Assembly (NCBI GenBank): GCA_964584315.1
Contig: CAZOZO010000001.1
Location: forward strand, 84,225-148,224
Reading direction: 5' to 3'
Source: an uncultured Oscillospiraceae bacterium
Lineage (GTDB): Bacteria; Bacillota; Clostridia; Christensenellales; Aristaeellaceae
DNA length: 64,000 bases
Shown here: positions 41,503 to 57,070 of the stretch, piece after piece
How the letters are laid out: every line of letters begins with the position of its first letter
Position numbering within the stretch: the stretch's first letter is position 1
Notes under the pieces: model-generated
What the model was told of the DNA's origin: nothing
Databases searched by the model: none
What the model saw: only the letters and a program-made list of their open reading frames with translations
Translations under genes and position numbers: made by a program

Positions 41503-44500
41503 TCAGGGTTTTCGGTTTGCCAGCGCATCTATCTCCCGCATGGCTTGGCTCAAAAGCGACTGGAACCGCTCATGCTCCTCGTGCACAACATCTGTATCGC
41601 TTGCCTGCAACGCTTTTTGCAGCCTTTCGGCACACACGGCAAGTTGCATGGCCCCAATGCTGCCGGAGCTGCTCTTGACCTTGTGCACGGTCTGCGCAGC
41701 CTGGACAAAATCATTCGCGTCGATCTGCGCTTGCAACTGCTCTCCTGTCTGTCGGTTCTCGCTCAGGTACGCCTGCAATATCGCCACGTAAAGGCTCTCG
41801 TCGATGCCAAGCTGCCGCATCGCCCGTGCGCTGTCCACCACGGGCGCATTGTCCTGCGACGCAGCCAGCGGAGCGTCCGCCGGGCCGGCCGTTTCAGCGG
41901 CTTCCATTTTTCCGGAAGGCCTGTCCACAGCCGCTGCCGGCGGCGGCTCGACCGCTGCTGCGGGGGTCGGGTTGCTCTCGCGACAGGGCTTCCCTTTCAG
42001 CGCCTCCAGAATGGTGCGGATGAAGGCCTCGGGTTCAAACGGCTTGCTCACGTAATAGTCGATACCGTGGCTCTTGCACTTCTCCTCCACGCCCACCACC
42101 GCGTCCGCAGTCATCGCGATGATGGGGATGCTTTGATCTGTTTGGCGGATCAGGTCGGTCGCCGTGTATCCGTCCATCACCGGCATATGGATGTCCATGA
42201 GGATCAGGTCGATCGACTCGCGGTGGGCGCTGAAAAAATCATAGCCCTCCTGTCCGTTGCCCGCCATGGAGATGACAAAGCCCGCCGAGGATAAAATGCT
42301 CTGCGCGATAAACTGATTGGTCTTGTTGTCCTCAACCAGCAGGATGTGGTAGGGGCAGGGCGCCACAGGGGCTTCCTCCACAGCCTCGGCATTTCCTTTT
42401 CGGGGCGGGTCGATGCGGAACAGTTCCACGATGCCGTTATACAGCGTGGAGGGAACGATGGGCTTGGTGAAGCCGAAATCGATGCCGCAGGCGGCGATAT
42501 TCTCCAGCAGATCCTCGCGCGTCATGGGCACCATGAGCATACACTTGGCGCTGCGCGGGAAGTACATGGCTTTGCGGATCCGCTCCAGAAAGGCGATACC
42601 GCCGTCCTGCGGGGTCAGGTAATCCACGATCAACAAATTGTATGGCGCATCGCTCTCGAGCGCCGCTTTGCGCATGATCTGCACAGCCTGTGCCTCGTCT
42701 GCGGTAACACGGTGCTCGATGCCGAACGCTTTCAGATAATCGCCCAGCGTGTTGCGGGAGTTTTCGCTGGCGTCCAGCACCAAGGCGCGTACCGTGCGGA
42801 AGCAATCCGCCGCCATTTTTTGCGAATCAAACGGCATCTGGTTGGGGTCGGCTTCCAGCGATAGCCGCACCGTGAAGACGGAGCCCTTGCCAAGCTCGCT
42901 CTGCACATCGATCTGGCCGCCCATCAGCTCCGTCAGGCTCTTGACAATCGACAGGCCAAGCCCTGTGCCGCCAAACCGGCGGCTGATGCTCGAATCGCCC
43001 TGGTCGAAGGGCACGAACAGCCGCTTGGTCTGCTCCTCACCCATACCGATGCCCGTATCCTGCACGCTGAACGTGACGACGTATTTGAGATCGCTCCGGC
43101 TTTGCGAGTTTATCGTGAGCGTGACGCTGCCGCGCTCGGTAAACTTGACCGCATTGTTCACAAGGTTGAGCAGCACCTGCTCAATGCGCGTGGGATCGCC
43201 CATGAAGAGCGTTGGCATGTCAGGCGCTTTGCGGATGAAAAACTCGATCTCCTTCTCCTCCACTTTAACGGAGATGATGTTGGTGATGCGTTGCAACAGC
43301 TTGTCCAGATCGAAGGAGATCCTTTCGATCTCGATCTTGCCCGATTCGATCTTGGAAAAATCAAGGATGTCGTTGATGATGCTGAGCATGTTGCGCGCGG
43401 ATTGATTCAGCTTTTCCAGATAGTTGCCCTGCGTGGCGGTCAGCCCCGTTTTTTTGATCAGGTAGGCCATGCCCATGATGGCGCTCAGCGGCGTGCGTAT
43501 CTCGTGGGACATGCGCGCTAAAAACAGCGATTTGACCTGATTGGCCTGTTCCGCCTCGGTTTTGGCCGCGCTGGCTTCCTCCTGCGCCTTTTTTCGGCGC
43601 GCGACCTCCTTACGCAAGCGCAGTATCCAGTAAAGCGACACCGTCCACACCAGCGCAACAAGCCCGCCGACGATCAACAGCGTCTGGATCAGCGCGGAGT
43701 AGTCCGTATCTGCCTGAATGGATATCCATTTGTTGCTGATGGCGATGCGTTCTTCCTGCTTTATACTGCCCAGCGCCTTGTTAAGGATGCCCACCAGCAC
43801 CGGCCAATCGCTACGCACAGCGAAGTACAGCTGCTGCGGCTGCTGCGAGCTGATGGTGATATAGCGCAGGTTGGTGATGCCATACTTTTTGATCAGGTAG
43901 CTGGAGGTGCTCAGGTTGCCCACAAAGGCGATCTCGGTGCCGTCCGATACGGCCTGCAGCGCCTCCTCCACGGTGGTGTACAGGGCCAGCGATATGGTTG
44001 GGTAGTCCATTAGGAAGCTGTGGTGCGAGCTATTCACCTGCACGGCCACGCGCCTGCCCTTAAGATCGTCGAATGATTTGATCTGCCTGGTGTTTTCATT
44101 GATGAAAATGACCCGCTGGAAGGTGTAATACCCTTGTGAGAACAGGAAGTACTTCTCCCGCTCTGCCGTTTTGGCCACGCAGGGCAGCACATCCAGCTGC
44201 CTGCCTACGGCCTTCTCGTATGCCTGCGTCCAGGTCAGCCCTTTTGCCACTGTCATTTGGAGGCCTGTCGCCTTGGCGATCAGCGCGATATAATCCGCCG
44301 CGATACCCTTGTAGATACCGTCGGTGTCGAAGAACTCATACGGGATGAACGCAGGGTCGACACCCAGACGGATCTCCGGGTGCGCGGCCATGAAGTCCAG
44401 TTCCTCCTGCGACCAGACGATGCCGCCGGATGCCCTCGCTGCGGGCGCTGTGCCAAGGGAGAGGCACAGCAGGCACAGAAGGAGCAGCAGAAAGCGTGCG

Positions 44501-44532
44501 CATTCCGTTCCTTTCGTCCTCATGATCATCAC
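41503..44532 (-). CDS. hybrid sensor histidine kinase: signal peptide, two tandem periplasmic SBP_bac_3-like ligand-binding domains, TM, HisKA/HATPase_c, two REC domains, C-terminal Hpt
   Basis: 1009 aa. HisKA H-box (MSHEIRTPLSAIMGM), HATPase G-boxes (DTGIGM, GGTGLGLSIV), REC Asp (LIVDY..., LMDIHMPVMDG), Hpt helix bundle at the C-terminus (HKVKSSSGSIGA). Confidence 0.85.
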   Translation of the reverse strand: MMIMRTKGTECARFLLLLLCLLCLSLGTAPAARASGGIVWSQEELDFMAAHPEIRLGVDPAFIPYEFFDTDGIYKGIAADYIALIAKATGLQMTVAKGLTWTQAYEKAVGRQLDVLPCVAKTAEREKYFLFSQGYYTFQRVIFINENTRQIKSFDDLKGRRVAVQVNSSHHSFLMDYPTISLALYTTVEEALQAVSDGTEIAFVGNLSTSSYLIKKYGITNLRYITISSQQPQQLYFAVRSDWPVLVGILNKALGSIKQEERIAISNKWISIQADTDYSALIQTLLIVGGLVALVWTVSLYWILRLRKEVARRKKAQEEASAAKTEAEQANQVKSLFLARMSHEIRTPLSAIMGMAYLIKKTGLTATQGNYLEKLNQSARNMLSIINDILDFSKIESGKIEIERISFDLDKLLQRITNIISVKVEEKEIEFFIRKAPDMPTLFMGDPTRIEQVLLNLVNNAVKFTERGSVTLTINSQSRSDLKYVVTFSVQDTGIGMGEEQTKRLFVPFDQGDSSISRRFGGTGLGLSIVKSLTELMGGQIDVQSELGKGSVFTVRLSLEADPNQMPFDSQKMAADCFRTVRALVLDASENSRNTLGDYLKAFGIEHRVTADEAQAVQIMRKAALESDAPYNLLIVDYLTPQDGGIAFLERIRKAMYFPRSAKCMLMVPMTREDLLENIAACGIDFGFTKPIVPSTLYNGIVELFRIDPPRKGNAEAVEEAPVAPCPYHILLVEDNKTNQFIAQSILSSAGFVISMAGNGQEGYDFFSAHRESIDLILMDIHMPVMDGYTATDLIRQTDQSIPIIAMTADAVVGVEEKCKSHGIDYYVSKPFEPEAFIRTILEALKGKPCRESNPTPAAAVEPPPAAAVDRPSGKMEAAETAGPADAPLAASQDNAPVVDSARAMRQLGIDESLYVAILQAYLSENRQTGEQLQAQIDANDFVQAAQTVHKVKSSSGSIGAMQLAVCAERLQKALQASDTDVVHEEHERFQSLLSQAMREIDALANRKP

Positions 44533-44534
44533 CC

Positions 44535-45605
44535 CTATGCCAGCGGCATAAAGCGTTCGGCAATGGCCCTGATCTCCGCCTCGATCTGGAAGAACGCATC
44601 CACCAGCTCCGGGTCGAAGTGCTTGCCGCGCTCGCCGCCAATGATGTCAAGCGCCGTCTCGTGGCTGAAGGCGGGTTTGTATACGCGCTGGCTGACCAGC
44701 GCATCGTACACGTCGATGATGGCCATCAGCCTGCCTGCCAGCGGGATCGCCTTGCCCACGAGCCTGGCAGGGTAGCCGCTGCCGTCGAATTTCTCATGAT
44801 GCGTGCCCACGATCTCCAGCGCCGTGCAGATGAAGGAGAGCTGCGTGCCCTCGTGCCCAGCCAGCCGCAGGGCCTCTACGCCGTAGGTGGTGTGTTTTTT
44901 CATGATCTCGAACTCTTCCGGCGTCAGCTTGCCCGGCTTGAGCAGGATATGATCCGGGATGCCAACCTTGCCGATATCGTGCAGCGGCGCGGTGCTGAAA
45001 AGCTCGCTGATGTAGGCGTCGGTCAGCATGGTGCTGTAGGGTTCCATGCCGCGCAGGTGCTCGCACATGGCCTTCATCATCCACTGGGTGCGGCGGGTGT
45101 GGTTGCTGGATTCGATATCCCGCACCTCCAGCAGCCCCACCAAAGCCTGTATGGTCACGTCACGGGTCAGGTTCAGCTCGCGCGTGCGCTCCTGCACAGC
45201 GTTTTCCAGGATCACGTTGTGCTGCTCCAGCGCCTTCTGCGTTCTCTTGAGGCTGCTGTGCAGCTCGATGCGCTTGAGCAGGGAGCGCAGGTTCAGCGGT
45301 TTGCGGATGTAATCCACTGCGCCCAGCTCAAGACCCTTGATCTCGTTGTCGATCTCGTCATAATTGGTCAGGATCAGGGTGGCGATGCCGTGGTAGCGCG
45401 GGTCGTCGCGGATGGCGGCCAACACCTCAAAGCCGTTCATGCGCGGCATGTTGATATCCAGAATCATGATATCGATGTCATTTTCGCGCGCAAGCACCTC
45501 CATCGCCTCCACCCCGTCGGCGGCGGTGCGCAGGTCGTAATCCTTGAGCATGTTGCGCAGCATCATCGAATCCGTCATGGAATCGTCGACGATCAACAGT
45601 TTCAT
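44535..45605 (-). CDS. response regulator with HD-GYP c-di-GMP phosphodiesterase output domain (RpfG-like)
   Basis: 356 aa, REC (LIVDDS...ILDINMP) plus HD-GYP (HDIGK ... HHEKFDGSGYP). 3-nt spacing to the kinase gene. Confidence 0.85.
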   Translation of the reverse strand: MKLLIVDDSMTDSMMLRNMLKDYDLRTAADGVEAMEVLARENDIDIMILDINMPRMNGFEVLAAIRDDPRYHGIATLILTNYDEIDNEIKGLELGAVDYIRKPLNLRSLLKRIELHSSLKRTQKALEQHNVILENAVQERTRELNLTRDVTIQALVGLLEVRDIESSNHTRRTQWMMKAMCEHLRGMEPYSTMLTDAYISELFSTAPLHDIGKVGIPDHILLKPGKLTPEEFEIMKKHTTYGVEALRLAGHEGTQLSFICTALEIVGTHHEKFDGSGYPARLVGKAIPLAGRLMAIIDVYDALVSQRVYKPAFSHETALDIIGGERGKHFDPELVDAFFQIEAEIRAIAERFMPLA

Positions 45606-45644
45606 CCAATGTCACCCTGCCTTCATCATCTGGTTTACGGTGCG

Positions 45645-46967
45645 TCAATCGTTGTGCAGGATACGGTTTCCCTCCGTTTCAATCATCGCCAGAAAGGCTT
45701 CCGTGGTCAGTTCGCCGGTCATCACCCGGTGCAGCCCGGGGGCGTAGTAATCGTCCTTGACCACCTGCCACGCGGGCACGGGCACATCCACGCTGGGGTT
45801 CTGGAAGCCCTCGATGAACTTGATATAGGATGGATAGGCGCGGAATGCATCAACGGCGGACATATCGCCGCGGATGGGCGTTCGGAAGGGATAGTAGGCA
45901 TCGTGTTCCGGGCTGTATTCGCCAAGTAAAATCTGTCCCTGCGCCTTGGGGGAGATCAGGTAGCGGATTAGGTCGAGTGCCTGCGCACGCAAGGACTCGT
46001 CCAAACCCGCGGGCACGGCCAGCATCATGGGACCTACCTCCGCGCAAAGGCCGATATCCTTGAGCGAGATGACCCCCACCTCAAAGGGCTCCCCGTTTTT
46101 CTGGATGTCCGTGACACCCCAAATGCCCTGGATCTCAAAGGCGACCTGCTGGTTGCGGAAGTGATCCATCACCTCCACGCCGGTATCCGTAAGCCAGGTC
46201 GGCTGTGCGTGCGCGCCCAGAACGTTCTTGTAGAAATCGATCGCTGAACGGCTTGCCTCGCTGTTGATGGTAACAGTGGCGCCGTCTTTGCTCACCAGCG
46301 AGCCGCCAAAGCCGTAGATGCACTGGTTCACCATCCACGAGATGTCGTTGCCCTCCGCGCCGACCAGTCCGAAACCCTTGGCGCCTGTGTTGGCTTCCAC
46401 CTGTGCCATGGCGCGCACCAGCGCATCACGGCTTTTGATGGACGAGGCATCGACGCCCGCCTGTGAAAGCAGCGACTCGTTGTACAGCAGGCACATCGCG
46501 TGCCCCAGCCACGGGATGCCGTAGGTCGCGCTGCCCACGCCCCCCAGCGCCCACACCTGCGGATAAAAGGCCGCACGCTCCGCCTCGAATGCCGCGTCAA
46601 GATCCAGCAGCGCACCCTTCATGCCAAAGTACTTTACATACCGATAAGGAAGAACGCAGACGAGCGGTGCGCCGCTGTCCAGCAGCGCCTCGATGGCGTG
46701 CAGATCCTCATCGCCGCCCACCATGGTGACGGGGGCGACGCTACCCGCGTTGTAGGCATCCACGATCTTCTGGATGGCTTCGCCCCGGCCGGTGTAAGCC
46801 GCCCATGTAATGCGCAGCGATAGCCCTGCAGGGACGGCCTGCGCCGCGTCGGCACGCGGGGTGGATGCTGTTGTTTGGGCTGGCAGCTCAGGCTTTTGCG
46901 CACAGCCAAACAGGCTGAAAACCAACACGGCGGCCATCAGCAGAAGCCAGATTCTTTTCCCAATCAT
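45645..46967 (-). CDS. family-1 extracellular solute-binding lipoprotein (ABC-type SBP fold) encoded inside the signalling operon
   Basis: 440 aa, lipobox LFGC, SBP_bac_1-like sequence; no adjacent ABC permease/ATPase genes. Confidence 0.75.
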   Translation of the reverse strand: MIGKRIWLLLMAAVLVFSLFGCAQKPELPAQTTASTPRADAAQAVPAGLSLRITWAAYTGRGEAIQKIVDAYNAGSVAPVTMVGGDEDLHAIEALLDSGAPLVCVLPYRYVKYFGMKGALLDLDAAFEAERAAFYPQVWALGGVGSATYGIPWLGHAMCLLYNESLLSQAGVDASSIKSRDALVRAMAQVEANTGAKGFGLVGAEGNDISWMVNQCIYGFGGSLVSKDGATVTINSEASRSAIDFYKNVLGAHAQPTWLTDTGVEVMDHFRNQQVAFEIQGIWGVTDIQKNGEPFEVGVISLKDIGLCAEVGPMMLAVPAGLDESLRAQALDLIRYLISPKAQGQILLGEYSPEHDAYYPFRTPIRGDMSAVDAFRAYPSYIKFIEGFQNPSVDVPVPAWQVVKDDYYAPGLHRVMTGELTTEAFLAMIETEGNRILHND

Positions 46968-47297: not shown

Positions 47298-48647
47298 TCA
47301 GGCCGATACGACCCGGTTGCGCCCCATGTTTTTGGCGCTGTACATCGCGTCGTCTGCCGTATTGATAAGCTGCTGGATGTCGTTGATATCTTTATTCGGG
47401 TACGTCGCGGTACCCAAGCTGACGGTCACTTTCACTTCCTGGTCGTTCCATTTCAAAATCGAGTCGCCCACCATGATGCGGATTCGCTCCGCAATCATCT
47501 GCGAATCGTGCTGGTTGGCTCCGGGCAGCACGCACAGGAATTCCTCTCCGCCATAGCGTATCAGCACATCGCCTTCCCGAATCGCGCCGTTGATGGTTTT
47601 GGTGATGGATACGATGATCTTGTCGCCGACGATGTGCCCGTAGGTATCGTTGACCACCTTGAAGTGGTCGATATCCAGCATGATGAGCGATAAAGAAGCG
47701 CCGGAACGGATCGAACGGCTGAACTCCTCCTGGATGCGGCTGTATCCAAACCTGCGGTTATAGATGCCCGTGAGCGAATCCAGCGCAGCCAGCCGCTGCA
47801 TCTGCTGGTGTGTGATGGCGTTGTTGAAGGCCATGGACAGGATCGGGGCACAGGCGGTGAGCATGTCGAGCGCGTCGCAGGAGAACGGCGTGATGCTCGC
47901 CAGAATGATGACCCCCAGCAGCACCTGCTTGTAGATGATGGGTTCAATGATCAACGACTGCGGGCGGTAATCCACCACCAAGCCGTCCATCACGATATCA
48001 GTGGGGTACTGCACGATGTAGCGTTCATGGGTTTTCATGGTATGCAGCACAAGCGCGTTGGTCTCCAGCAGTTTTTCGTTTTTCATGGCAAGCGTGGCCA
48101 CGGCTGTAAACTCGCCGCTGTTTTCGATCAGGATCGCCCCGCCGCTGGTGTGCGTATTCTCGATCAGGCTTTGCAGCGTGCTGTTTGCGAGCACCTCCAG
48201 CTCCAGATGCGAAGTGAGCATCTCGGAAAACTGCTGCAGGCTGCTCTGCGCCTTCAATACGCCAGACAGCGTCGTGATCAGGCGGTTGAACGATTCCGCG
48301 CTTTCGCCCAGCTCATCCTCCGAATCCACCTCGATGCGGCAGGTTTCAGGCGTGCACGTGTCACAGCCTTGCTCATGCCCCATGGCGGAGAGGATGCCCT
48401 CCACGTGCTTCATTTTGGAAGACAGCTGCTTGATGCGCGTGCCTACGGTCTTGCGCGCCAGCGCGATGTTCATGACGGCCAGCAGGATGCCCGCCCCGAT
48501 GCACGCGCCAAAGAACGCGGGCTGGAATACGATGCTGCCGGGGACCTTGAACAGTGCAACAAAAAACGGAAAAAGCACGCCAACAAAAACGCCGAGCAGG
48601 ATCATGAATATGGCCAGATCGGTAAAAATTTTCTTGGTAAGCCGCAT
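47298..48647 (-). CDS. membrane-anchored GAF-GGDEF diguanylate cyclase
   Basis: 449 aa, two N-terminal TM helices, HAMP-like linker, GAF-like region, GGDEF domain with intact GGEEF active site and RxxD-type I-site context. Confidence 0.85.
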   Translation of the reverse strand: MRLTKKIFTDLAIFMILLGVFVGVLFPFFVALFKVPGSIVFQPAFFGACIGAGILLAVMNIALARKTVGTRIKQLSSKMKHVEGILSAMGHEQGCDTCTPETCRIEVDSEDELGESAESFNRLITTLSGVLKAQSSLQQFSEMLTSHLELEVLANSTLQSLIENTHTSGGAILIENSGEFTAVATLAMKNEKLLETNALVLHTMKTHERYIVQYPTDIVMDGLVVDYRPQSLIIEPIIYKQVLLGVIILASITPFSCDALDMLTACAPILSMAFNNAITHQQMQRLAALDSLTGIYNRRFGYSRIQEEFSRSIRSGASLSLIMLDIDHFKVVNDTYGHIVGDKIIVSITKTINGAIREGDVLIRYGGEEFLCVLPGANQHDSQMIAERIRIMVGDSILKWNDQEVKVTVSLGTATYPNKDINDIQQLINTADDAMYSAKNMGRNRVVSA

Positions 48648-48809: not shown

Positions 48810-48838
48810 TTTACAGAAGTCAACTCCCTTTATATAAT
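48810..48838 (+). promoter_or_regulatory. sigma70 promoter of the exopolysaccharide operon (TTTACA-17-TATAAT), divergent from the DGC operon
   Basis: TTTACA 48810-48815, TATAAT 48833-48838; ~60 nt to the GTG start with AGGAGG RBS. Confidence 0.6.
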
Positions 48839-48902
48839 GAAACGGAGGGGGATATGGCCCCGCGTGTGATCGTTGCCCAAATGTTTTTACAGGAGGCACC
48901 CT

Positions 48903-51900
48903 GTGCGCAAAGTCATAGGCGGTTTTCTTGCCATCATACTGCTGCTGGCGGGCATGCTTTGGGTCACCAAGGCATATTTCTTCTCCATCGGCTATTCGCA
49001 GCCGCTGGTCGTCAGCAGCCAGGGCGTGTCCTACACCGCCAAGGTGGAGGGCAAGGATTTTTATGTGCTGGACGCGGGCGGGCAGTGGAAAAAAACATTC
49101 CTCGCCGGTGTGGATATCGGCCTTGGCGCACCTGGATCGTTCCCGGGCGAGTTTGCCATCGGGTATGAGACCTATTTCGACTGGTTCACGCAGATCGGCG
49201 ATCTGGGCTCGAACGTCATCCGCGTGTACACGCCGCAGTCGCCTGCTTTCTACCACGCACTGTACGAGTATAACCGCGTTGCGGCCACTCCGCTGTATTT
49301 GATGCAGGGCGTGTATATGGATGAGAGCGACGTGGCGCAGTACGGCGACGTGTTCGACCCCCGCTCCATCACCATTGCGGATATGCGGCAGGATATCGTG
49401 GACTGCGTGAACATGCTGCACGGCAACGCAGTGATCGGCGCCAAGCCGGGAAAGGCTTCGGGCGTATATCAGTATGACGTCTCCAAGTATGTGATCGGCT
49501 GGATACTGGGCATCGAGTGCGAGGCGTATCTGGTGGATGGCACCAACAAGGCGCACCCCGAGATGACCAGCTTTCAGGGGCGCTTCGTCTATACCGAGAA
49601 TGCCTCGCCCTTTGAGGTCTTCATCGCGCAGATGAAGGAGCTGGCCATTGCCTACGAGACCGATCAATACCGGATGCAGCGGCCCGTGGCGTTCAGCAAC
49701 TGGGTTACTACCGACCCCCTGAAGCACGTAAACGAGCCCTACGAGACGGAGGACAGCGCCACCATTGATGTGGAGCATATCAAGTCGATGCCTGCCTTTG
49801 CGCCGGGCTTCTTTGCCTCCTACCACGTGTACCCCTACTATCCCGATTTTCTCAACTTCCCCAGCGGCGACCCGGCGGTGGACGCGGATCCGTATTACGC
49901 CTATGTGCGCTCGCTGGTGGATTTCCATGCTGTGCCCGTGCTCATCTCCGAGTTTGGCCTGCCCACCTCCCGTGGGGTAACGCACATCAACCATCTGAGC
50001 GGCCTCAACCAGGGCGGCAACAGCGAGCAGCAGCAGGCGCAGGGGCTTACGAAGATGCTGGACGACATCCACCGTGCCGGTTGCATCGGCGGCATCGTGT
50101 TTGCCTGGCATGACGAGTGGTTCAAAACCTCGTGGAACACCATGGACTTTGATGACAGCTCCGCTCGCCCCAAATGGCTCAATGTACAGTCCAGCGAGGA
50201 GAACTTTGGCCTTGTGCGCTTCTCCGCCTTCCCGTCCATCCAGATCGACGGCGACGATGCGGACTGGGCTGGTGCCAAGGCTGTGGGCGATAGCGACGCC
50301 TTGAAAGCGAACTGGGATGAGGCCTACCTCTACCTGCGGCTTGCCACGGACGATTTTGAAAACCAGACCTACTATGTGCCCATCGACACCATCGCAGACG
50401 AGGGCAACGAAGGCTATGAGGGCGCATCTTTTGCCCGCGCGGCCGATTTTGTGCTGGTGCTGGATGGCAGGCAGGACACGCGCCTGCTGGTCGACCCGTA
50501 CTATAACCCAAACTATAGACTCTACGGACGGGATACCTTCCCCAAAGAGGCGCTTGCGGACTTCACGGTCAAGGGCAGCGGTAAGTTCATCATGGTGCAG
50601 CAGGTCATCAGCAACCGGCTCCTCATGCCCAAGACCGGCCAAATCGTGCCCGTTCAGCTGTGGGATACCGGCAAAATGCGCTACGGCGTCTCCAACCCTG
50701 AGAGCCCCGCCTTTGATTCCATGGCCGATTTTTGCGCGGGGGATGGGTTCGTGGAGATACGCATCCCGTGGCTGTTGCTGAATTTCGCGGATCCGTCCTC
50801 CGGCAAGATTCTGACCGACCTGCACAAGGAGGGGCCGTTCAGCTTTGAGCGCATCCAGAGCATTTACCTGGGCGTGGGCGAGGCTGACGAATCAGCGGCC
50901 GTCTCCATGGCGCCCTACACGCTGCCCGCATGGGGTGCATTCCCCTACCAGCAGCGGCTGAAGCTGGCTTACTACGCGCTGGAGAAGGTTTTCCCGAAAT
51001 ACGCCACCTACCCGATCAGCGCGGGCGACCCGCTGGCGGAGGCGCTGCGCCTGCGCGACACGCGCCTTTTGTACGTGCGCATCGACCGTCAGATCCGCAA
51101 CACAGATCTGATCACGTTCTTCCTGGCCGTGTCGCTGCTGATGGCGCTGTACCTCTATATCCTGCTGCTGGCTATCAACCTGAACCTGAACCGCATCTTC
51201 AGGCGTCAGGAACGCGAGCGTGTCTACCTGCTGTCGTTGCTTGCATTGCCGGAAAAGAAGCTGCGCCGCAAGCTGCACATGCATTACCTGTGCACGGCCA
51301 GAGGTGCGGAGCTGCTGTGCCGCATCCTGACGGACGAATGCCCGTGGGGAAGCGATACGGCGCTTATCGAGGTGCTGCGCACAGGGCGTTACTTCGCCTG
51401 GATGAAACGTAGCCTTGCCTCGCGGGACATGATGCTGCGTATCCTGATCATCCGCCTGACGGGCCTTTTGCGCATCCGCAGTTTTGAAACGCAGATCATC
51501 CCTCTGATGCGGGCGCAGCGCGATAACCTGAACCTGCAATACGCGGGTTTTCTGGCGCTGTCGATGATGGGCAACCGCGACAGCATCGTCAAGCTCTGCG
51601 GCGACCCGGCCTTTACCAAGTCGCTCTCCTACCGCAGCCTGAAGGAGATCTTCAGCGTGTACACGGGAGACAAGCGATTTTTGTACGAGAAGCTGCTGCT
51701 CTCGCCGGATGTGTACATCCGCCGCATCGTGATCAAAAACATCGGCGAGGAAGGCTTCCGCGAATATGCCCAGGCGCTGATCCCCATGCTGGAGAGCCGG
51801 GACGACAACATGCTGTGCGACGTGATCCGCGCGCTGGGGCAGCTGCGCTGCACCGCCGCCGGAGAGCGGATCGCGATGTACATGCGCAGCGAGAACTGGA

Positions 51901-52151
51901 CGCTGCGCAACGCGGTGGTGGTGGCCCTGGCCGCCATCGATGCGGAGGCCTACCGCCCCCTGCTGATGGAGGGTCTCAAAGACAAAGAGTGGTGGGTGCG
52001 CTACAACAGCGCGCGGGAGCTGTGTGCCAACGTACCGCTGGAATCGCTGGCAGCAGCCATCCCCACGCTGAACGACCGGTTCGCGGCCGAGATACTGCGC
52101 TTCGCCATCGATGAGGCGCGCATGATGGGCAAGGGGGTGGCTAGGGTATGA
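48903..52151 (+). CDS. two-pass membrane protein: extracellular clan GH-A-like (TIM-barrel) glycoside-hydrolase fold + beta-sandwich region, second TM, cytoplasmic HEAT/PBS-lyase-type repeat domain
   Basis: Start GTG 48903 (RBS AGGAGG, 6-nt spacer); the track's TTG 48873 lacks an RBS. N-terminal TM (VIGGFLAIILLLAGMLWV); candidate acid/base NEP (HVNEPYE) and nucleophile ExG (LISEFGLP) ~80 aa apart; second TM (LITFFLAVSLLMALYLYILLLAI); C-terminal ~300 aa of HEAT-like repeats (VIRALGQL...AVVVALAAID...WWVRYNSAREL). 4-nt overlap with the GT2 gene. Confidence 0.7.
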   Translation: MRKVIGGFLAIILLLAGMLWVTKAYFFSIGYSQPLVVSSQGVSYTAKVEGKDFYVLDAGGQWKKTFLAGVDIGLGAPGSFPGEFAIGYETYFDWFTQIGDLGSNVIRVYTPQSPAFYHALYEYNRVAATPLYLMQGVYMDESDVAQYGDVFDPRSITIADMRQDIVDCVNMLHGNAVIGAKPGKASGVYQYDVSKYVIGWILGIECEAYLVDGTNKAHPEMTSFQGRFVYTENASPFEVFIAQMKELAIAYETDQYRMQRPVAFSNWVTTDPLKHVNEPYETEDSATIDVEHIKSMPAFAPGFFASYHVYPYYPDFLNFPSGDPAVDADPYYAYVRSLVDFHAVPVLISEFGLPTSRGVTHINHLSGLNQGGNSEQQQAQGLTKMLDDIHRAGCIGGIVFAWHDEWFKTSWNTMDFDDSSARPKWLNVQSSEENFGLVRFSAFPSIQIDGDDADWAGAKAVGDSDALKANWDEAYLYLRLATDDFENQTYYVPIDTIADEGNEGYEGASFARAADFVLVLDGRQDTRLLVDPYYNPNYRLYGRDTFPKEALADFTVKGSGKFIMVQQVISNRLLMPKTGQIVPVQLWDTGKMRYGVSNPESPAFDSMADFCAGDGFVEIRIPWLLLNFADPSSGKILTDLHKEGPFSFERIQSIYLGVGEADESAAVSMAPYTLPAWGAFPYQQRLKLAYYALEKVFPKYATYPISAGDPLAEALRLRDTRLLYVRIDRQIRNTDLITFFLAVSLLMALYLYILLLAINLNLNRIFRRQERERVYLLSLLALPEKKLRRKLHMHYLCTARGAELLCRILTDECPWGSDTALIEVLRTGRYFAWMKRSLASRDMMLRILIIRLTGLLRIRSFETQIIPLMRAQRDNLNLQYAGFLALSMMGNRDSIVKLCGDPAFTKSLSYRSLKEIFSVYTGDKRFLYEKLLLSPDVYIRRIVIKNIGEEGFREYAQALIPMLESRDDNMLCDVIRALGQLRCTAAGERIAMYMRSENWTLRNAVVVALAAIDAEAYRPLLMEGLKDKEWWVRYNSARELCANVPLESLAAAIPTLNDRFAAEILRFAIDEARMMGKGVARV

Positions 52152-53560
52152 GGAACGTGATCTACGCGGTGTTGATGGTCATCAACAGCCTTTCGCTGGC
52201 GTACATGATCGGCATCACGATCACGTACTTCCTGCAGCTGCTCTACTCCGGCAAGGCCCTCAACGAATATGTCAAGTACCTGCGCTTTTCGGATTACCGC
52301 CGCTACATCGATTCGGCCAACATGATCCCCGTTTCGCTGATCGTGCCCGCCTACAACGAGGAAGCGACGGTGACCGAAACGGTCAAAAACCTGCTCAAGC
52401 TCAACTACCCGGAGTATGAGATCATCGTGGTGAACGACGGCTCCAAGGACGGCACGCTGCCGCTGTTGATCGAGAAATTCAGCATGGTGCCCATCGAGCA
52501 GCCGTTCAAAAAATCGGTGGAAGCCAAACCCATCCGCGCGGTGTACCGCACGCCGCTGCATGCCAACCTGATGGTCGTGGACAAGGAAAACGGCGGCAAG
52601 GCGGACGCGCTGAACGCGGGCATCAACTTTTCCCGCTACCCGGTGGTGGTGTCGATGGATGCGGACTCGGTACTGGAGAAAGAAGCGCTGGTGCGCATCG
52701 TGTCGCCCTTTTTGCAGGACAACACGGTGGTTGCGGTGGGGGGCGTGGTGCGCATCGCCAACGGCTGCGTGATCGAAGATGGCGAGATCAAGGAGATTCG
52801 CCTGCCGCGCACAGCGCTGGGCAAACTGCAAACGGTGGAGTACTTGCGCTCGTTTTTCACGGGGCGCATCGGGGCCGCGTCCATGGGCATGCTGCTGATC
52901 ATCTCCGGCGCATTCGGCGCCTTCCGCAAGGATGCGGTCATCTCGGTGGGCGGCTACACCACGCACTGCATCGGCGAGGATATGGAGCTGGTGGTCAAGC
53001 TGCACCGCGGCCTGCGCAATGCGGGCAAGCCGTACAAGATCGACTTTCTGCCGGACCCCATCTGCTGGACGCAGCCGCCCGAAAACCTGCGCGACCTGTA
53101 CAAGCAGCGCAAGCGCTGGCAGATCGGCCTAATCAACGTGCTGATGCGCCACAAAGACATGGCTTTCAACGCCAAGTACGGCAAAGCCGGGCTTTTGATG
53201 CTGCCCTATTATTGGATCTTCGAGTTTATCGGCCCCATCTTTGAAACGATGGGTTATTTCGTGATACCGCTGTCGTGGTGGCTGGGTATCATCAGCTGGA
53301 AATTCACATTGCTGTTCTTCCTGCTGGTGGTGATGGTAGGGCTGATCCTGTCGCTGGGCGCGATATTGCAAGAGAGTTATGCCATGCGCAAGTTCCCCAA
53401 AATGAGCCAGATACTGACGCTGGCCGCCTACGCGCTGGTAGACAACTTCGGCTTTCGGCAGTTCAACACCGTGATCCGTTTCATCGGCTGCATCAAATAC
53501 CGCAGCGGTAAGAGTACGTGGGGCTCCATGAAGCGTGAAAAGTTCGTATCCAAAAAATGA
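52148..53560 (+). CDS. processive family-2 glycosyltransferase (PgaC/IcaA/NodC/chitin-synthase-like beta-glycan synthase)
   Basis: 470 aa, N- and C-terminal TM bundles, GT-A core with VNDGSKDGT, DADSVL, and the processivity motif QRKRWQIG (QxxRW). No PilZ domain. Confidence 0.82.
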   Translation: MRNVIYAVLMVINSLSLAYMIGITITYFLQLLYSGKALNEYVKYLRFSDYRRYIDSANMIPVSLIVPAYNEEATVTETVKNLLKLNYPEYEIIVVNDGSKDGTLPLLIEKFSMVPIEQPFKKSVEAKPIRAVYRTPLHANLMVVDKENGGKADALNAGINFSRYPVVVSMDADSVLEKEALVRIVSPFLQDNTVVAVGGVVRIANGCVIEDGEIKEIRLPRTALGKLQTVEYLRSFFTGRIGAASMGMLLIISGAFGAFRKDAVISVGGYTTHCIGEDMELVVKLHRGLRNAGKPYKIDFLPDPICWTQPPENLRDLYKQRKRWQIGLINVLMRHKDMAFNAKYGKAGLLMLPYYWIFEFIGPIFETMGYFVIPLSWWLGIISWKFTLLFFLLVVMVGLILSLGAILQESYAMRKFPKMSQILTLAAYALVDNFGFRQFNTVIRFIGCIKYRSGKSTWGSMKREKFVSKK

Positions 53561-53713
53561 CCCCGCGACGCGCAGCGGGCAGTTGCGCATCCGTTGCGGA
53601 CAGAGGCGGACGAGAGCATGGCCGCTCGCCCCATCATTCATTGGCCATAGCGGGCCGCGCAGTGCAGGCGTTCGACCGCACGCCACCCGCGCATGAGAAT
53701 TTGGGAGGTGTAT

Positions 53714-54847
53714 GTGCGCTTGAAGCCATATCATCGGCGGTTTCGGGGCAAGGCAATGCTAATGGCGGCCATTTTGCTGACCGTCTCCGGTTGCGTGGCG
53801 CCGGTTATGGGCTTCACACTGCCAACGGCACGCGCGGAGGGCAGGTTGCTCACCGGCGTGTATGTGTTTGACGGCAGCAGGGCCAAGTACCGCGACGGCG
53901 ATGCGGACAGCATCGACCAGATGTTCTATTCCTTCGCCCTCATCCGCCGCGGGCGGGTGAGCGTAGCCCACTGGAAAAATTTCAAAAAGTTTCAGGCGTA
54001 CATCCAAAAGCATCCGCACATCACGCCCATCTTATCGGTGGGCGGGTGGGGTGCGGACGGGTTTTCGCAGGCGGCCGCCACGGCGGAGGGTCGTGAGGCG
54101 TTTGCCGCGGATGTGCTGCAGGTGATGCAGCAGCATGGTTTTTTGGGTGTGGATATCGACTGGGAATATCCGGGTTCCTCTGTCGCGGGCATCCACAGCA
54201 GCCCCGATGACCGGGAGAACTACACCCTGCTGCTCAAGACGCTGCGCGAAGGGCTGGACGCCTTGACCGCCGCTGACGGAGTGCCGCGCAGGCTGTGCGT
54301 GGCATTGAGCGGTTCGCCCGATATGGCGGCAAGCTTGGATTGCGTAGCGATCGGCACGGTTGTGGATCAGGTCAACCTGATGACTTATGACTTGCAGCAG
54401 CCAGACACTGCCTCGCACCACAGCGCGCTGTTTGCATCGCACCCGGACGCGCTCTCGGCGGCGGCCTGTGTGCAGGCCTACATACGAGCGGGTATCCCCG
54501 CGGGCAAGCTCATGCTGGGTGTGGCGTTCTACGGCCACCGCTGGGCAACGAAGGCCGAAGCGCCGCTCTACCGCCCGGCGACCCAAAAGGACACGCTGCC
54601 TTACGCCGCCATCGCCAAGCTGATCCGCAAAACGCCAGATGCGGTGCGCTATGACGAAGTGGCGCAGGCACCGTACTTTTTTGACGGAAAAACCTTCATC
54701 AGCTATGATGATCAGCGGTCGATCGCGCAAAAAGGGCTTTATGCCGGTGAGCAGCACCTGATGGGGCTGTTCGCGTGGGAATATGGCTCGCTGGCGGACG
54801 GGGAACTCGTGGCGGCGATGGGGGATGCGGGGGAGCAGGAGCCGTAG
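53714..54847 (+). CDS. GH18-family glycoside hydrolase lipoprotein (chitinase / endo-beta-N-acetylglucosaminidase-like)
   Basis: Start GTG 53714 (RBS GGGAGG): lipobox LLTVSGC. GH18 catalytic DxxDxDxE motif (GVDIDWEYP), SVGGW, MTYDL. The track's ATG 53693 is 7 codons upstream and overlaps the RBS. Confidence 0.82.
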   Translation: MRLKPYHRRFRGKAMLMAAILLTVSGCVAPVMGFTLPTARAEGRLLTGVYVFDGSRAKYRDGDADSIDQMFYSFALIRRGRVSVAHWKNFKKFQAYIQKHPHITPILSVGGWGADGFSQAAATAEGREAFAADVLQVMQQHGFLGVDIDWEYPGSSVAGIHSSPDDRENYTLLLKTLREGLDALTAADGVPRRLCVALSGSPDMAASLDCVAIGTVVDQVNLMTYDLQQPDTASHHSALFASHPDALSAAACVQAYIRAGIPAGKLMLGVAFYGHRWATKAEAPLYRPATQKDTLPYAAIAKLIRKTPDAVRYDEVAQAPYFFDGKTFISYDDQRSIAQKGLYAGEQHLMGLFAWEYGSLADGELVAAMGDAGEQEP

Positions 54848-55048: not shown

Positions 55049-57070
55049 TCACGCATTCTTCGGGGGTTCATCCGGGGTCGTGGGCGGCTGGGCTGCTTCC
55101 TGCCCCTGCATGGCCTGCATGATGGATTCTTTGATGCCCTTGACGCGGGCATCCTCTGCCTTGGGCTCCTGATCGAAGGTCACGCCCAGCTTTTCGCTCA
55201 CAAGCAGGTTCAGCAGCATTTCAAATGCATTGACGGAGCTGTTCTTGCCGTCCCCGCCGCCCATACTGAGCACCGTTTTGGGCACGACGTCGACTTTCGA
55301 AGCTGCGATGGCGGAGGTGAACTTGGTCATCACGTCCTGCACGACCTGATACTGCGGGCCGCCGTATGCCTTGACCTGTTCCTCAATGGCAATGGCGCGG
55401 CCGATGCCCACGCGGGCTTCCTTCTCGGCCTCGGCCTCGGCAATGGTTTTGATTTTGGCCGCTTCCTGCAGCGAGCGCTGATATTCGGCCTTACCCACGT
55501 TGCTCTGTACCTGAATGTTGATATCGGATTCCGTCAGCACTGTCTGCTGCAACGCTTTGGACTCGGCTTCACGCAGCTCTTTTTCCTTGCCGGCTGCTTT
55601 TTCCTGCTGGGAATAAGTCTCGATGCGCTCGATGGCGATCTGCCGCTCGCGCAGCTGGGTCAGGATGATCTCGATCTTGTTGTCGTTCTCGGAGGCCGCG
55701 GGCGTGCCGATGAGCACTTCCTCCAGCTCCAGATTGTAGTGTTCGAACTTTGCCTTCATCTCGCTGGAGGAGACACGCTGGATCTCATTTCGATCCTGAA
55801 TGAGCTGGATCAGCGTCTTGGTCTGGCCGATGTTCTTGAAGTACGCGGACACCATGGGGTCAAGGGTTTGGTCTACCAGCATCTTGACATCGCCAAAGCG
55901 CTGGATGACCAGCGGGGCCTTTTTGTAGTCGATGTGCATGACCACCGAGAGCGGCAGGGATGGCTCAAAGGCATCCTTGGTGATCAGGCTGACTTCCGTC
56001 AGGTTTTCGTCAAATTTGTGGTAGCCGGTCTGGTTGCTGATCCACTTGAGGATGATGTTTGTGGTGGGCACGCGGATGATCTTGCCCGCATAGGTGTTGA
56101 AGGCGTACTTGCCGGGCATGAGCGGCTCTCCCCACACGCCGCGGAACCCCTTTTCCACCAGCTCGCCGTGCTTATAATCCGCGCCGGTGGAATCGATCCC
56201 CTTAGGGCCGATGTAGGACACGACCACGCCCACATACCCGACCTCGATCAGCGTTTTTTCGATCAGTTCCACGGTCGCGAAAAAGCGGTTGATGAAGTAG
56301 GTGCCCTCGACCAGCACCTGATACTGCCTGCCGCGGAAACCGCCTGCCAGCAGAAATTTCTCGGGATCCTGAAAGTTGTTATGGTAGATGCGTGCATCGG
56401 CTGGGTCGTCGCCCACGGCGGGGGCGATGATATCGTCGCGGGTGAGAGAAAGGCCGTCGTGAACCGTCACGATGCCCACCTTGTCATCCGTGCCCTTGAT
56501 CACCACCGGGGTAAAGCCGTTCCGCTCTTTCAGGAGAGCCGCCATGCTGGTGATGGTGGATTCTTCGGCGCTGGTGCCCATCGGCAGGTAATAGATCCTC
56601 TCTTGGGTGATGATGATGAACTGCGCAAGGTTGAACGCATACGTGCCCTCACGGATGATGCCGCGCTGCGGACCGCGCTGCCCATCGTTGAGCAGAAAGC
56701 CGCGCGCATCCTGAAAGTTATTGCTCTCCGGAATCACCTTGCCCAGCGTCTGGATCGGCTCCAGTGGCTTGCCATCCCGGGCGAACACATAGGCGATCTG
56801 CCCCTGCGGCACCGTGACCAGCGGGCAGATGTGCACCTTGTACATCAAAGGCGTCAGAAAATGGACGCCGCCGCGGATGACCTGCGGCTGATATCCGGCT
56901 TCCTTTTTCAGCGCGATAATCTGCATGTTCAGGGAGCCCTTCAGGGACCACCATTTTTCAATGATCGCAATCTTGTTGTTGGGGATCACGCGCAACCCCA
57001 GCAGCCACAACAGCAGGGCACAGTCCACCACGATCGCAAGCGGCATCAGGATCGATTGCAGGAAGACCAT
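55049..57070 (-). CDS. flotillin (FloT/YuaG/YqiK-like SPFH-domain protein)
   Basis: 673 aa from ATG 57070 (RBS GAGGTG): N-terminal TM, SPFH/band-7 domain (QVIRGGVHFLTPL...), long coiled coil with EA-repeats (IAEAEAEKEARVG...), C-terminal FloT-like tail. The track's 205-codon 5' extension has no coding signature. Confidence 0.75.
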   Translation of the reverse strand: MVFLQSILMPLAIVVDCALLLWLLGLRVIPNNKIAIIEKWWSLKGSLNMQIIALKKEAGYQPQVIRGGVHFLTPLMYKVHICPLVTVPQGQIAYVFARDGKPLEPIQTLGKVIPESNNFQDARGFLLNDGQRGPQRGIIREGTYAFNLAQFIIITQERIYYLPMGTSAEESTITSMAALLKERNGFTPVVIKGTDDKVGIVTVHDGLSLTRDDIIAPAVGDDPADARIYHNNFQDPEKFLLAGGFRGRQYQVLVEGTYFINRFFATVELIEKTLIEVGYVGVVVSYIGPKGIDSTGADYKHGELVEKGFRGVWGEPLMPGKYAFNTYAGKIIRVPTTNIILKWISNQTGYHKFDENLTEVSLITKDAFEPSLPLSVVMHIDYKKAPLVIQRFGDVKMLVDQTLDPMVSAYFKNIGQTKTLIQLIQDRNEIQRVSSSEMKAKFEHYNLELEEVLIGTPAASENDNKIEIILTQLRERQIAIERIETYSQQEKAAGKEKELREAESKALQQTVLTESDINIQVQSNVGKAEYQRSLQEAAKIKTIAEAEAEKEARVGIGRAIAIEEQVKAYGGPQYQVVQDVMTKFTSAIAASKVDVVPKTVLSMGGGDGKNSSVNAFEMLLNLLVSEKLGVTFDQEPKAEDARVKGIKESIMQAMQGQEAAQPPTTPDEPPKNA

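Follow-up and report, generated by a model that had tools for sequence, protein, structure and literature searches.

To our knowledge, the machineries that build biofilm polysaccharides in Gram-positive bacteria are poorly known beyond the Ica, Eps and Pel systems and the clostridial and listerial cellulose-like systems, and every characterised synthase-dependent system (BcsZ, CcsZ, PslG, PelA, PgaB, AlgL) relies on a hydrolase or a lyase. In the Pga system, PgaC and PgaD constitute the synthase, and PgaB combines a CE4 deacetylase with a GH153 domain. The GH5 enzyme CcsZ belongs to the ccsABZHI system of Clostridioides difficile (PMC7710045). The NELoc-2 locus of Clostridium perfringens, associated with necrotic-enteritis strains, carries, in this order, CP4_0466 (a hypothetical protein of 685 aa), CP4_0467 (a HEAT-repeat protein of 377 aa) and CP4_0468 (a 466-aa GT2 'chitin synthase') (Lepp et al. 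2010, PMC2879425). Here we analysed a 64-kb stretch of DNA, hereafter the window, in which a single gene joins two normally separate synthase partners, an enzyme-like domain on the outside and a HEAT scaffold on the inside. We consider it fairly likely that the fused protein unites two of the three components of a conserved, synthase-dependent exopolysaccharide module found in Firmicutes.

The fused gene (48903..52151, +) encodes 1082 aa and lies in an open reading frame at 48873..52151 (+); its likely start is the GTG at 48903, with an AGGAGG ribosome-binding site 7 nt upstream. As pattern matches only, a sigma-70-like promoter (TTTACA-17-TATAAT, 11 of 12 consensus positions) precedes the gene at 48810..48838 (+), and a divergent promoter-like site faces the neighbouring GGDEF gene at 48752-48725 (-). 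An Rfam search of the whole 64-kb window found no c-di-GMP riboswitch or other upstream RNA element. More than 50 homologues of equal length and architecture (36-85% identity) are present in independent assemblies, which excludes a chance or assembly artefact, and the peptides quoted in the initial annotation (HVNEPYE, LISEFGLP, VIRALGQL, AVVVALAAID and WWVRYNSAREL) are all found in the translation. That annotation had read the protein as a signal-anchor, an ectodomain, a second transmembrane helix and a HEAT domain, a layout borne out by a Kyte-Doolittle scan, an AlphaFold2 model and the HEAT_2 profile. The scan detects exactly two hydrophobic segments, at about residues 4-22 and 736-762. In the full-length model (pLDDT 86.4), residues 2-21 form a helix, 35-700 a folded ectodomain, 736-779 a long helix and 784-1075 an all-alpha solenoid; the ectodomain of ~710 aa thus lies between the two hydrophobic helices, and the HEAT solenoid of ~300 aa comes after the second. 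The N-terminal Arg-Lys favours an N-in orientation of the first helix (TM1 or signal-anchor, residues 2-21, 48906..48965, +), as delimited by the hydrophobicity scan and the model. The second (TM2, residues 736-762, 51108..51188, +), the counterpart of the N-terminal transmembrane helix of stand-alone HEAT proteins, appears in scan and model alike, which disposes of a layout lacking it. The label 'bitopic' is loose wording, since there are two transmembrane helices in an N-in/C-in arrangement.

The model of the ectodomain (pLDDT 92.5) shows eight beta-alpha units, i.e. the (beta/alpha)8 TIM barrel typical of clan GH-A, at residues about 60-440 (49080..50222, +), followed by an extracellular beta-sandwich region (residues 441-700, 50223..51002, +) that terminates in the family's C-terminal helix '..QQRLKLAYYALEKVF'. 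At the sequence level, the ectodomain matched no PDB chain, even with the family profile at E<=10, and Pfam and NCBIfam searches of the fused protein (E<=1) returned nothing except HEAT. Linking the protein to solved structures by the single sequence, the full profile or a barrel-only profile gave HEAT matches or nothing, and this route was abandoned. Public databases name the ectodomain protein 'family 2 glycosyl transferase' or hypothetical.

Two invariant glutamates stand at the ends of barrel strands in positions suited to catalysis, as placed by strand order in the model and motif analogy, not by 3D superposition. E205 (codon 49515..49517, +), in the motif 'WILGIE', directly follows strand 197-204 and closes strand 4, the canonical position of the acid/base that we predict it to be; E350 (codon 49950..49952, +), in 'LISEFG', follows strand 346-351, closes strand 7 and is the predicted nucleophile. 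The strand-4 segment 'VIGWILGIE' parallels 'VVMWSIANE' of E. coli GUS, and E350 was aligned with the nucleophile E504 of the GUS motif 'ITEYG' at a very low hhalign probability of 0.9%. Of the standard family members, 83 of 85 retain E205 and 82 of 83 retain E350, and these members and the window protein also keep R107, H308, Y310 and W402; read from sequence, the six residues would make up a full GH5-like catalytic constellation. The initial annotation had proposed instead an NEP...ExG pair. Its ExG half, E350, stands as an invariant residue at the end of strand 7, but the sole NEP of the protein (residues 277-279) falls in the loop that follows strand 5; its E278 (codon 49734..49736, +), although shared by at least 90% of homologues, is therefore not the canonical acid/base.

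In nearly all GH-A families, an Asn immediately precedes the acid/base Glu. Across the present family, position 204 is Ile, Leu, Val or Pro and never Asn, and the replacement of Asn by Ile/Leu/Val makes atypical or absent catalysis possible. The ectodomain could then be a catalytically silent, BcsB-like subunit that guides the chain or binds carbohydrate, taking the polymer from the GT2 channel, its conserved glutamates binding sugar without catalysis. The missing Asn fits this idea, as do the beta-sandwich after the barrel and the loss of E205 and/or E350 in about 14 of 33 'long' paralogues, which makes a non-catalytic, chain-guiding role possible for the fold; in the fused form, the large extracytoplasmic domain with a C-terminal transmembrane helix beside a GT2 also recalls BcsB. 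However, all six residues are retained in the window protein and in standard members, the BcsB family profile gave no match in the fused protein (Pfam and NCBIfam, E<=1), and the C-terminal transmembrane helix is missing from most family members, and we regard a silent ectodomain as quite improbable. A somewhat less remote, albeit still unlikely, alternative is that the ectodomain works mainly by transglycosylation or cross-linking, in the manner of fungal GH72 Gas/Gel or GH17 enzymes, the nascent polymer being remodelled or grafted onto the cell wall rather than trimmed and the HEAT domain still serving as synthase partner. Sequence and fold do not separate hydrolysis from transglycosylation; yet the best structural match of the ectodomain is a hydrolase, the GH157 endo-glucanase, in line with the enzymes of the characterised systems listed above.

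The C-terminal domain is a HEAT/PBS-lyase-type repeat solenoid. This cytoplasmic alpha-solenoid (residues 784-1075, 51252..52127, +) contains about 20 helices and matches HEAT_2 (PF13646) above the cut-off (E 2.4e-13), AlphaRep/HEAT structures by sequence (1.6e-17) and, by Foldseek, alphaRep (4e-8). HEAT solenoids are protein-interaction scaffolds. A search for a family-wide non-repeat nucleotide-binding motif within the domain found only generic PBS-HEAT repeat positions conserved, and family-wide residue conservation gave no sign of c-di-GMP binding. A HEAT-only database search for HEAT::GT2 fusions recovered just 15 matches, mostly fragments, generic HEAT words filling the candidate list.

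The next gene (52148-53560, +), whose start overlaps the stop of the fused gene by 4 nt via ATGA, encodes a processive GT2 synthase with DAD171, ED277 and QRKRW320 motifs, flanking transmembrane segments and matches to Pfam GT2 families, thus carrying the D, D, D, QxxRW signature of the processive membrane GT2s of synthase-dependent exopolysaccharide systems. Its closest curated model is that of PgaC/IcaA (TIGR03937, 4e-51), at 174 bits, i.e. far below the cut-off of 422 bits, and it also matches Chitin_synth_2. Further downstream lies a GH18 chitinase-type lipoprotein gene (53714..54847, +; LTVSGC lipobox, DIDWE catalytic motif), which a 70%-identical relative carries at the equivalent place. 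Such a neighbour favours a beta-1,4 over a beta-1,6 product; it may also be incidental, because, besides the window, only L084 among the four fused relatives with inspected neighbourhoods has a GH18 gene next to the module. A 104-aa open reading frame between the two genes (53557-53871) was rejected as a spurious, Arg/Gly/Ala-rich frame.

On the other side, the fused gene is flanked by a divergently transcribed membrane GAF-GGDEF diguanylate cyclase (47298..48647, -; GGEEF active site, RxxD I-site), an SBP_bac_1 solute-binding protein belonging to the conserved upstream signalling block (45645..46967, -), a REC-HD-GYP response regulator and putative c-di-GMP phosphodiesterase (44535..45605, -; HD 208-209, GYP 277-279; syntenic in L002 and L005), and an SBP_bac_3-HisKA-HATPase-REC-Hpt hybrid histidine kinase (41503..44532, -) that is syntenic with the module in Christensenellaceae genomes. 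Diguanylate cyclase genes flank every fused relative inspected, and 37 of 83 loci encode GGDEF/REC proteins, some of them within the operon, as in L038. Domain searches found no PilZ, GIL or MshEN domain in the fused protein or its neighbours in the window, and the longer GT2 found in L001 and neighbouring proteins likewise showed neither PilZ nor another receptor domain. The Romboutsia mixed-linkage glucan synthase RiGT2 carries PilZ and was ruled out as a member of the same system.

The architecture seen in the window is derived: it arose by fusion of two neighbouring genes that most lineages still keep apart. In most Firmicutes, the ectodomain protein (ECTO) and a single-pass TM-HEAT protein are encoded by separate genes; in L002, a 731-aa ECTO, a 369-aa TM-HEAT and the GT2 are encoded by three genes in a row, with the same upstream block of histidine kinase, REC-HD-GYP and solute-binding protein. 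Because the stand-alone HEAT protein has a single, N-out transmembrane helix, the fusion in the window is topologically seamless. A second ECTO::HEAT fusion, P0125 from a Clostridium-like lineage, is probably independent of it; its parts share 68% (ECTO) and 49% (HEAT) identity with the unfused proteins of Clostridium folliculivorans (L049) and only 41% and 24% with the window protein. The family has at least 596 species-level genome matches and 1594 clusters at 50% identity, spread over Clostridia, Bacilli and Acholeplasma/Izemoplasma-type Mollicutes. At least six family representatives, among them P0328 and P0336, are ECTO::CE4-deacetylase fusions, and one such member sits in a GT2-TPR-ECTO::CE4 operon. 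The 1117-aa deacetylase that adjoins the module in L083 proved not to be an ECTO::CE4 protein.

Among 82 ECTO loci, 53 contain the HEAT gene and 56 a GT2 orthologue, and each of the 53 HEAT-bearing loci has HEAT immediately before the GT2 orthologue and in the same orientation; a divergent Anoxybacillus locus still keeps the order HEAT-GT2-ECTO. An accessory-subunit gene and, with ECTO in the cluster, one for a candidate polymer-modifying enzyme are thus co-encoded with the GT2, as in other exopolysaccharide systems. About 30 ECTO loci have neither HEAT nor a GT2 orthologue within their flanks, and a Lachnospiraceae subset lies in a different, exosortase/PTPS-related context. Conserved synteny is strong support for the tie in function that the initial annotation had drawn with the overlapping GT2 and with c-di-GMP enzymes, whereas the annotation's idea of a single polypeptide as the fundamental coupling device is not borne out, ECTO and HEAT genes being separate in most lineages. 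The signalling genes around the module (GAF-GGDEF, REC-HD-GYP, hybrid histidine kinase, solute-binding protein) and the scaffold nature of HEAT solenoids could also point to a GT2-independent transmembrane sensor, in which binding or cleavage of an environmental glycan by the outside domain would be relayed by HEAT to the c-di-GMP or two-component neighbours. However, HEAT is associated with the GT2 in all 53 HEAT-bearing loci, whereas the signalling genes vary, and a transmembrane relay is impossible in most genomes because ECTO and HEAT are separate proteins there, making such a sensor very improbable.

In the synthase module that we favour, the first component, ECTO, would be a glycosidase or transglycosidase of clan GH-A located outside the cytoplasm, with a beta-sandwich, and held at the membrane by its N-terminal anchor; the second, TM-HEAT, a single-pass membrane protein with its solenoid in the cytoplasm; and the third, from the overlapping next gene, a processive PgaC/IcaA/chitin-synthase-like GT2 that would polymerise and translocate a beta-linked GlcNAc-type polymer. 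TM-HEAT would dock on the GT2, its helix at the synthase transmembrane bundle and its solenoid at the cytosolic GT domain, a physical contact suggested by gene order only, and would act as an obligate accessory or regulatory subunit, as does PgaD, IcaD or the BcsB anchor. The fusion would tether the outside enzyme at the polymer exit, where E205 (acid/base) and E350 (nucleophile) may cut or transglycosylate the nascent chain, and output would probably be under c-di-GMP made by the neighbouring GAF-GGDEF protein and degraded by the REC-HD-GYP protein. On this reading, the module would be a so far uncharacterised three-part synthase, probably linked to c-di-GMP, for a GlcNAc-type exopolysaccharide. 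The fused form, from a Christensenellales/Limiplasma-like gut bacterium, serves as a Rosetta stone that places the outside enzyme, the HEAT scaffold and the GT2 in one machine, and suggests that an unstudied machine for biofilm polysaccharide is widespread in Gram-positive bacteria. Several questions can be tested directly as a result: whether ECTO represents a new GH family and the HEAT protein a new type of accessory subunit for synthases, what polymer is made, and what the look-alike locus does in the C. perfringens strains associated with necrotic enteritis. More speculatively, and as a set that we doubt will hold in full, ECTO, TM-HEAT and GT2 might form an unrecognised Firmicutes-wide chitin-/PNAG-like pathway, ECTO might found a new clan GH-A CAZy family with an Asn-less centre adapted to 2-acetamido sugars, HEAT might be a new synthase activator passing c-di-GMP or cyclase input to the GT2, for instance by docking the diguanylate cyclase, and the NELoc-2 module might contribute to colonisation in necrotic enteritis.

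Among known systems, PgaABCD/IcaADBC resembles the module in its processive GT2 (PgaC/IcaA being the best curated match), a small-TM accessory partner encoded beside the synthase, an extracytoplasmic TIM-barrel glycosidase, here a putative one, dedicated to the polymer and a c-di-GMP context, and the ECTO::CE4 relatives and the GT2-TPR-ECTO::CE4 operon follow the PgaC/PgaA/PgaB logic. By contrast, the partner here is a 350-aa HEAT protein rather than the 2-TM PgaD/IcaD, the putative hydrolase is of clan GH-A with a GH157-like fold rather than GH153, there is no outer-membrane porin, and the CE4 domain Polysacc_deac_1, part of a PgaB-type protein, is absent from the fused protein and the whole 64-kb window. 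The endo-beta-1,3-glucanase LaGH157 (PDB 9fz9/9g5g) is only 18% identical to the ectodomain, short of the significant sequence similarity expected of a GH157 member; ECTO also departs from LaGH157 and from clan GH-A generally (GH2, GH5, GH72, GH17) in having (I/L/V)E in place of NE and in being membrane-anchored and tied to a synthase operon. BcsZ (GH8), CcsZ (GH5), PslG (GH39) and PelA are, as ECTO is predicted to be, extracytoplasmic glycosidases encoded beside a GT2 synthase, CcsZ and PslG also within clan GH-A, but none has a cytoplasmic HEAT subunit as fusion partner or companion, and their sequence families differ. BcsB and Listeria PssD are, like ECTO, large membrane-anchored extracytoplasmic partners of a GT2, built of CBD/flavodoxin-like repeats rather than a GH-A barrel. 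YdaN of B. subtilis (ydaJKLMN), which we took as a candidate homologue for its similar length and 'glycosyltransferase' naming, may presumably be BcsB-like, as is its listerial counterpart PssD, whereas ECTO has no BcsB match, and this candidate was set aside. CP4_0466 was not among the best 120 matches of a Clostridium ECTO query, and the NELoc-2 genes, unfused and equally uncharacterised in function, were compared by description only: in order, sizes and annotations, CP4_0466-0468 correspond to an unfused ECTO-HEAT-GT2 module.

The fused gene lies in an ORF on the + strand (48873..52151), with a probable GTG start at 48903 and AGGAGG seven bases upstream, and its 1082-residue product contains all the peptides quoted in the initial annotation. 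A Kyte-Doolittle scan of the whole protein detected exactly two hydrophobic segments, at about residues 4-22 and 736-762. In the full-length AlphaFold2 model (pLDDT 86.4), residues 2-21 are helical, 35-700 fold as the ectodomain, 709-733 form a juxtamembrane helix and 736-779 a long TM helix, and 784-1075 make up an all-alpha solenoid of ~20 helices, which Foldseek matched to alphaRep proteins. The second helix found by both approaches confirms the two-TM topology that had been read from the sequence. HEAT_2 (992-1060, 2.4e-13) is the only Pfam match in the protein, an NCBIfam search returned nothing meaningful, and the PDB sequence matches are limited to designed alphaRep/HEAT proteins. Its length and architecture recur, at 36-85% identity, in over 50 database proteins, whose source assemblies are those of Christensenellales, 'Candidatus Limiplasma' and other Eubacteriales, demonstrating that the gene is real and that the fusion did not result from misassembly. 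Its stop codon is overlapped, via ATGA, by a GT2 gene (52148-53560) bearing the motifs DAD, ED and QRKRW.

The window architecture is a fusion of genes that are separate elsewhere. On a 3.7-Mb Christensenellaceae chromosome (L002), the gene for a 731-aa ectodomain protein (ECTO) precedes a separate 369-aa gene, with GT2 next in order. The 369-aa protein is composed of a single N-out TM and a cytoplasmic HEAT domain (TM-HEAT), and the module is preceded, as in the window, by a hybrid kinase / REC-HD-GYP / SBP block. Since ECTO ends and TM-HEAT begins outside the cell, the two can be fused without topological change. ECTO::HEAT fusions represent 6 of the best 150 family representatives. In one fusion, P0125, the ECTO half shares 68% and the HEAT half 49% identity with the unfused counterparts in Clostridium folliculivorans (L049), whereas their identity to the window protein is only 41% and 24%; this closer relationship to L049 suggests that the fusion probably arose more than once. 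ECTO and HEAT are unfused in most genomes, which does not support the 'coupling device' initially imagined and contradicts the reading of the window protein as a transmembrane sensor independent of GT2, which we regard as highly improbable.

To define the module, 82 ECTO-containing loci were searched by profile HMMs and tblastn. An orthologue of the window GT2 (>=35% identity) is present in 56 of them, and a TM-HEAT gene or domain in 53. In every HEAT-bearing locus (53/53), HEAT lies immediately upstream of GT2 and is co-directional with it, which backs the functional link to GT2 first proposed. HEAT is therefore the invariant partner of GT2, and ECTO the third member. The position of ECTO is variable (ECTO-HEAT-GT2, HEAT-GT2-ECTO or ECTO-x-HEAT-GT2), and a divergent Anoxybacillus locus follows the order Hpt-GGDEF-REC / HEAT / GT2 / ECTO.

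The ectodomain was modelled with AlphaFold2 using 70 homologues (residues 23-735; mean pLDDT 92.5, pTM 0.92), with Foldseek in agreement (8e-14). Placing DSSP strands on the family alignment assigned eight beta-alpha units, in line with the glycoside-hydrolase-like extracellular fold first proposed: b1 (67-72), b2 (105-108, including the invariant R107), b3 (132-138), b4 (197-204, followed by the invariant E205), b5 (262-267, including N266 and W267), b6 (305-308, 'SYHVY', with H308 and Y310), b7 (346-351, 'LISEFG', including the invariant E350) and b8 (396-399, followed by W402 and D404-E405). In this model, these residues form a GH5/GH2-type catalytic constellation. The predicted fold and strand-7 glutamate are those of clan GH-A; E350 is thus the predicted nucleophile, as had been proposed. 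The acid/base had been placed in the NEP motif, but E278 sits in a loop past strand 5, and the strand-4 residue E205 is probably the candidate acid/base. 'VIGWILGIE' of ECTO parallels 'VVMWSIANE' of E. coli GUS (acid/base E413) motif for motif, and hhalign paired 'PVLISEFG' with 'PIIITEYG' (nucleophile E504), with very low probability. The acid/base glutamate is normally preceded by Asn; throughout the ECTO family this residue is replaced by Ile, Leu or Val, so that the 'NE' motif of clan GH-A is absent. Sequence does not place ECTO in GH157, and no solved relative of the barrel was detectable by sequence, even with a barrel-only family profile (E<=10). Faint Pfam echoes were obtained for some members, to GH113 (9/33) and to GH5, GH53 and GH72 (one each). 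That ECTO acts as a GH72-like transglycosylase is unlikely, although conceivable. Among standard ECTO copies, E205 is kept in 83/85 and E350 in 82/83, while one or both are lost in some 'long' paralogues; a catalytically silent, BcsB-like guide appears less likely still.

The ECTO family comprises 1594 clusters at 50% identity (E<=1e-3), or 596 at E<=1e-30, and a genome scan yielded at least 596 confirmed species-level matches. The matches listed come from Clostridia, Bacilli (Paenibacillus, Lysinibacillus, Geobacillus, Anoxybacillus and Priestia) and Acholeplasma/Izemoplasma-type Mollicutes. Most members are 700-730 aa long, with an N-terminal anchor only and a C-terminal end '...YHERLKxSYYI...', and lack the second TM and HEAT. 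NCBI and UniRef widely label stand-alone members 'family 2 glycosyl transferase' (P0085, P0088, P0101, P0109, P0121-P0124 and others); they hold no GT2 domain, and the label was probably transferred from the neighbouring gene. Bacillaceae members reach ~1060-1090 aa (L071-L074, L076, L077, L080, L081, L056, L061, L068, L079), with a ~370-aa N-terminal extension to which Pfam gave no match. Two or three paralogues occur in many Oscillospiraceae and Ruminococcus loci. Arrays of this type (L014, L021, L022, L035, L041, L042, L047, L048, L050, L051, L057, L065, L069, L075, L078) consist of an N-terminally extended ECTO paralogue (~1000 aa), HEAT, GT2 and a 740-aa ECTO, with a third ECTO of ~705 aa in most. 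Loss of the catalytic glutamates is frequent in the long paralogue, and the arrays suggest a hetero-oligomeric extracellular assembly including a pseudo-enzyme. A Lachnospiraceae subset devoid of HEAT (L019, L026, L032, L034, L046, L070) neighbours a PTPS_related membrane protein (PF10131), PTPS and a distant GT2 (~25% identity), with an exosortase-like protein in L034. This setting is an XrtG-type context, and the ECTO family therefore serves more than one polysaccharide system.

Several observations bear on the polymer. The best curated match of GT2 is PgaC/IcaA (TIGR03937, 4e-51, well below cut-off); chitin-synthase and NodC models are also hit, and among solved structures it comes no closer than BcsA (2.5e-7) and hyaluronan synthase. 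Downstream of GT2, a GH18 lipoprotein (53714-54847, +; LTVSGC, intact DIDWE) closely resembles true chitinases (5gzu, 1.5e-102) and is found at the equivalent place in a 70%-identical relative. Its probable start is GTG 53714 (GGGAGG upstream) rather than ATG 53693; an overlapping 104-aa ORF (53557-53871) is GC-rich and spurious. ECTO::CE4-deacetylase fusions account for at least six family representatives, from several lineages (P0328, P0336, P0345, P0283, P0383, P0339). The L086/L087 operon (L086 3940-12069), GT2 (504 aa) - TPR protein (514 aa) - ECTO::CE4 (1083 aa) - 605-aa unknown, repeats the PgaC / PgaA(TPR) / PgaB(CE4+hydrolase) logic from non-orthologous parts. Taken together, the PgaC/IcaA-like GT2, GH18 and the ECTO::CE4 proteins point to an N-acetylhexosamine polymer, and GH18 would favour a beta-1,4 (chitin-like) over a beta-1,6 linkage. 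Directly upstream of unfused ECTO in two Christensenellaceae loci (L002 6846-7799; L008 4619-5581), a GH16 / SKN1-KRE6-like lipoprotein gene takes the position of the window GGDEF gene, a possible hint that these genomes make a beta-glucan instead of a GlcNAc polymer. A Christensenellales genome carries, beside the fused module, a divergent second EPS-like set (L083 26-8676, -) encoding a Polysacc_deac_1 protein (1117 aa), a chitin-synthase-like GT2 (685 aa) and two unknowns (724 and 336 aa).

Control of the module by c-di-GMP is plausible. The window encodes a divergent GAF-GGDEF protein with GGEEF and an RxxD I-site, and a REC-HD-GYP protein with both HD and GYP motifs. GGDEF/REC proteins occur in 37/83 loci, sometimes between ECTO and HEAT, and DGC genes flank each fused relative examined. 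No riboswitch was found in the window, and no PilZ-like receptor in the window protein, its neighbours or the longer L001 GT2. Residues conserved across the whole HEAT family (W999, R1002, D1027, W1030, V1032, R1033, D1058) are generic repeat positions only. The block at 41503-46967 (-), encoding an SBP_bac_3-HisKA-HATPase-REC-Hpt hybrid histidine kinase, REC-HD-GYP and SBP_bac_1, resembles a signalling unit devoted to the EPS genes; it is syntenic, at 56-69% identity, with the stretch that precedes the unfused module on the Christensenellaceae chromosomes L002 and L005. On the other strand, right after the EPS genes (55049-57685, -), an 878-aa protein matches only an SPFH/Band 7 domain (residues 480-687) and is otherwise unannotated.

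We moderately favour a three-part machine, in which GT2 would synthesise and export a GlcNAc-type chain, TM-HEAT would be its obligate accessory subunit, and ECTO its cognate extracellular glycosidase or transglycosidase, which the fusion in the window lineage would hold at the channel exit. The initial interpretation stands for fold, topology, nucleophile and GT2 link, and falls for the acid/base and the coupling device. The only possible trace of the module found in the literature is the C. perfringens NELoc-2 gene table, in which a hypothetical protein (685 aa), a HEAT-repeat protein (377 aa) and a 'chitin synthase' GT2 (466 aa) appear in this order, for necrotic-enteritis strains and without functional work (PMC2879425); the likeness to ECTO-HEAT-GT2 concerns gene order, sizes and annotations only. 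The module would represent a widespread, previously uncharacterised three-part EPS synthase, of which the fused gene is the most informative form. It would work like a synthase-dependent EPS machine, outside the Pga, Ica, Bcs, Pel and Pss families: its GT2 scores under the PgaC cut-off, its putative hydrolase belongs to none of GH153, GH8 and GH39, and it lacks BcsB. TM-HEAT is proposed to be alike in function to PgaD, IcaD and the BcsB anchor, but is unrelated to them in sequence, and the proposed role of ECTO resembles that of BcsZ, CcsZ, PslG and the C-terminal domain of PgaB. Unlike in those families, the partner of the synthase is a HEAT protein.
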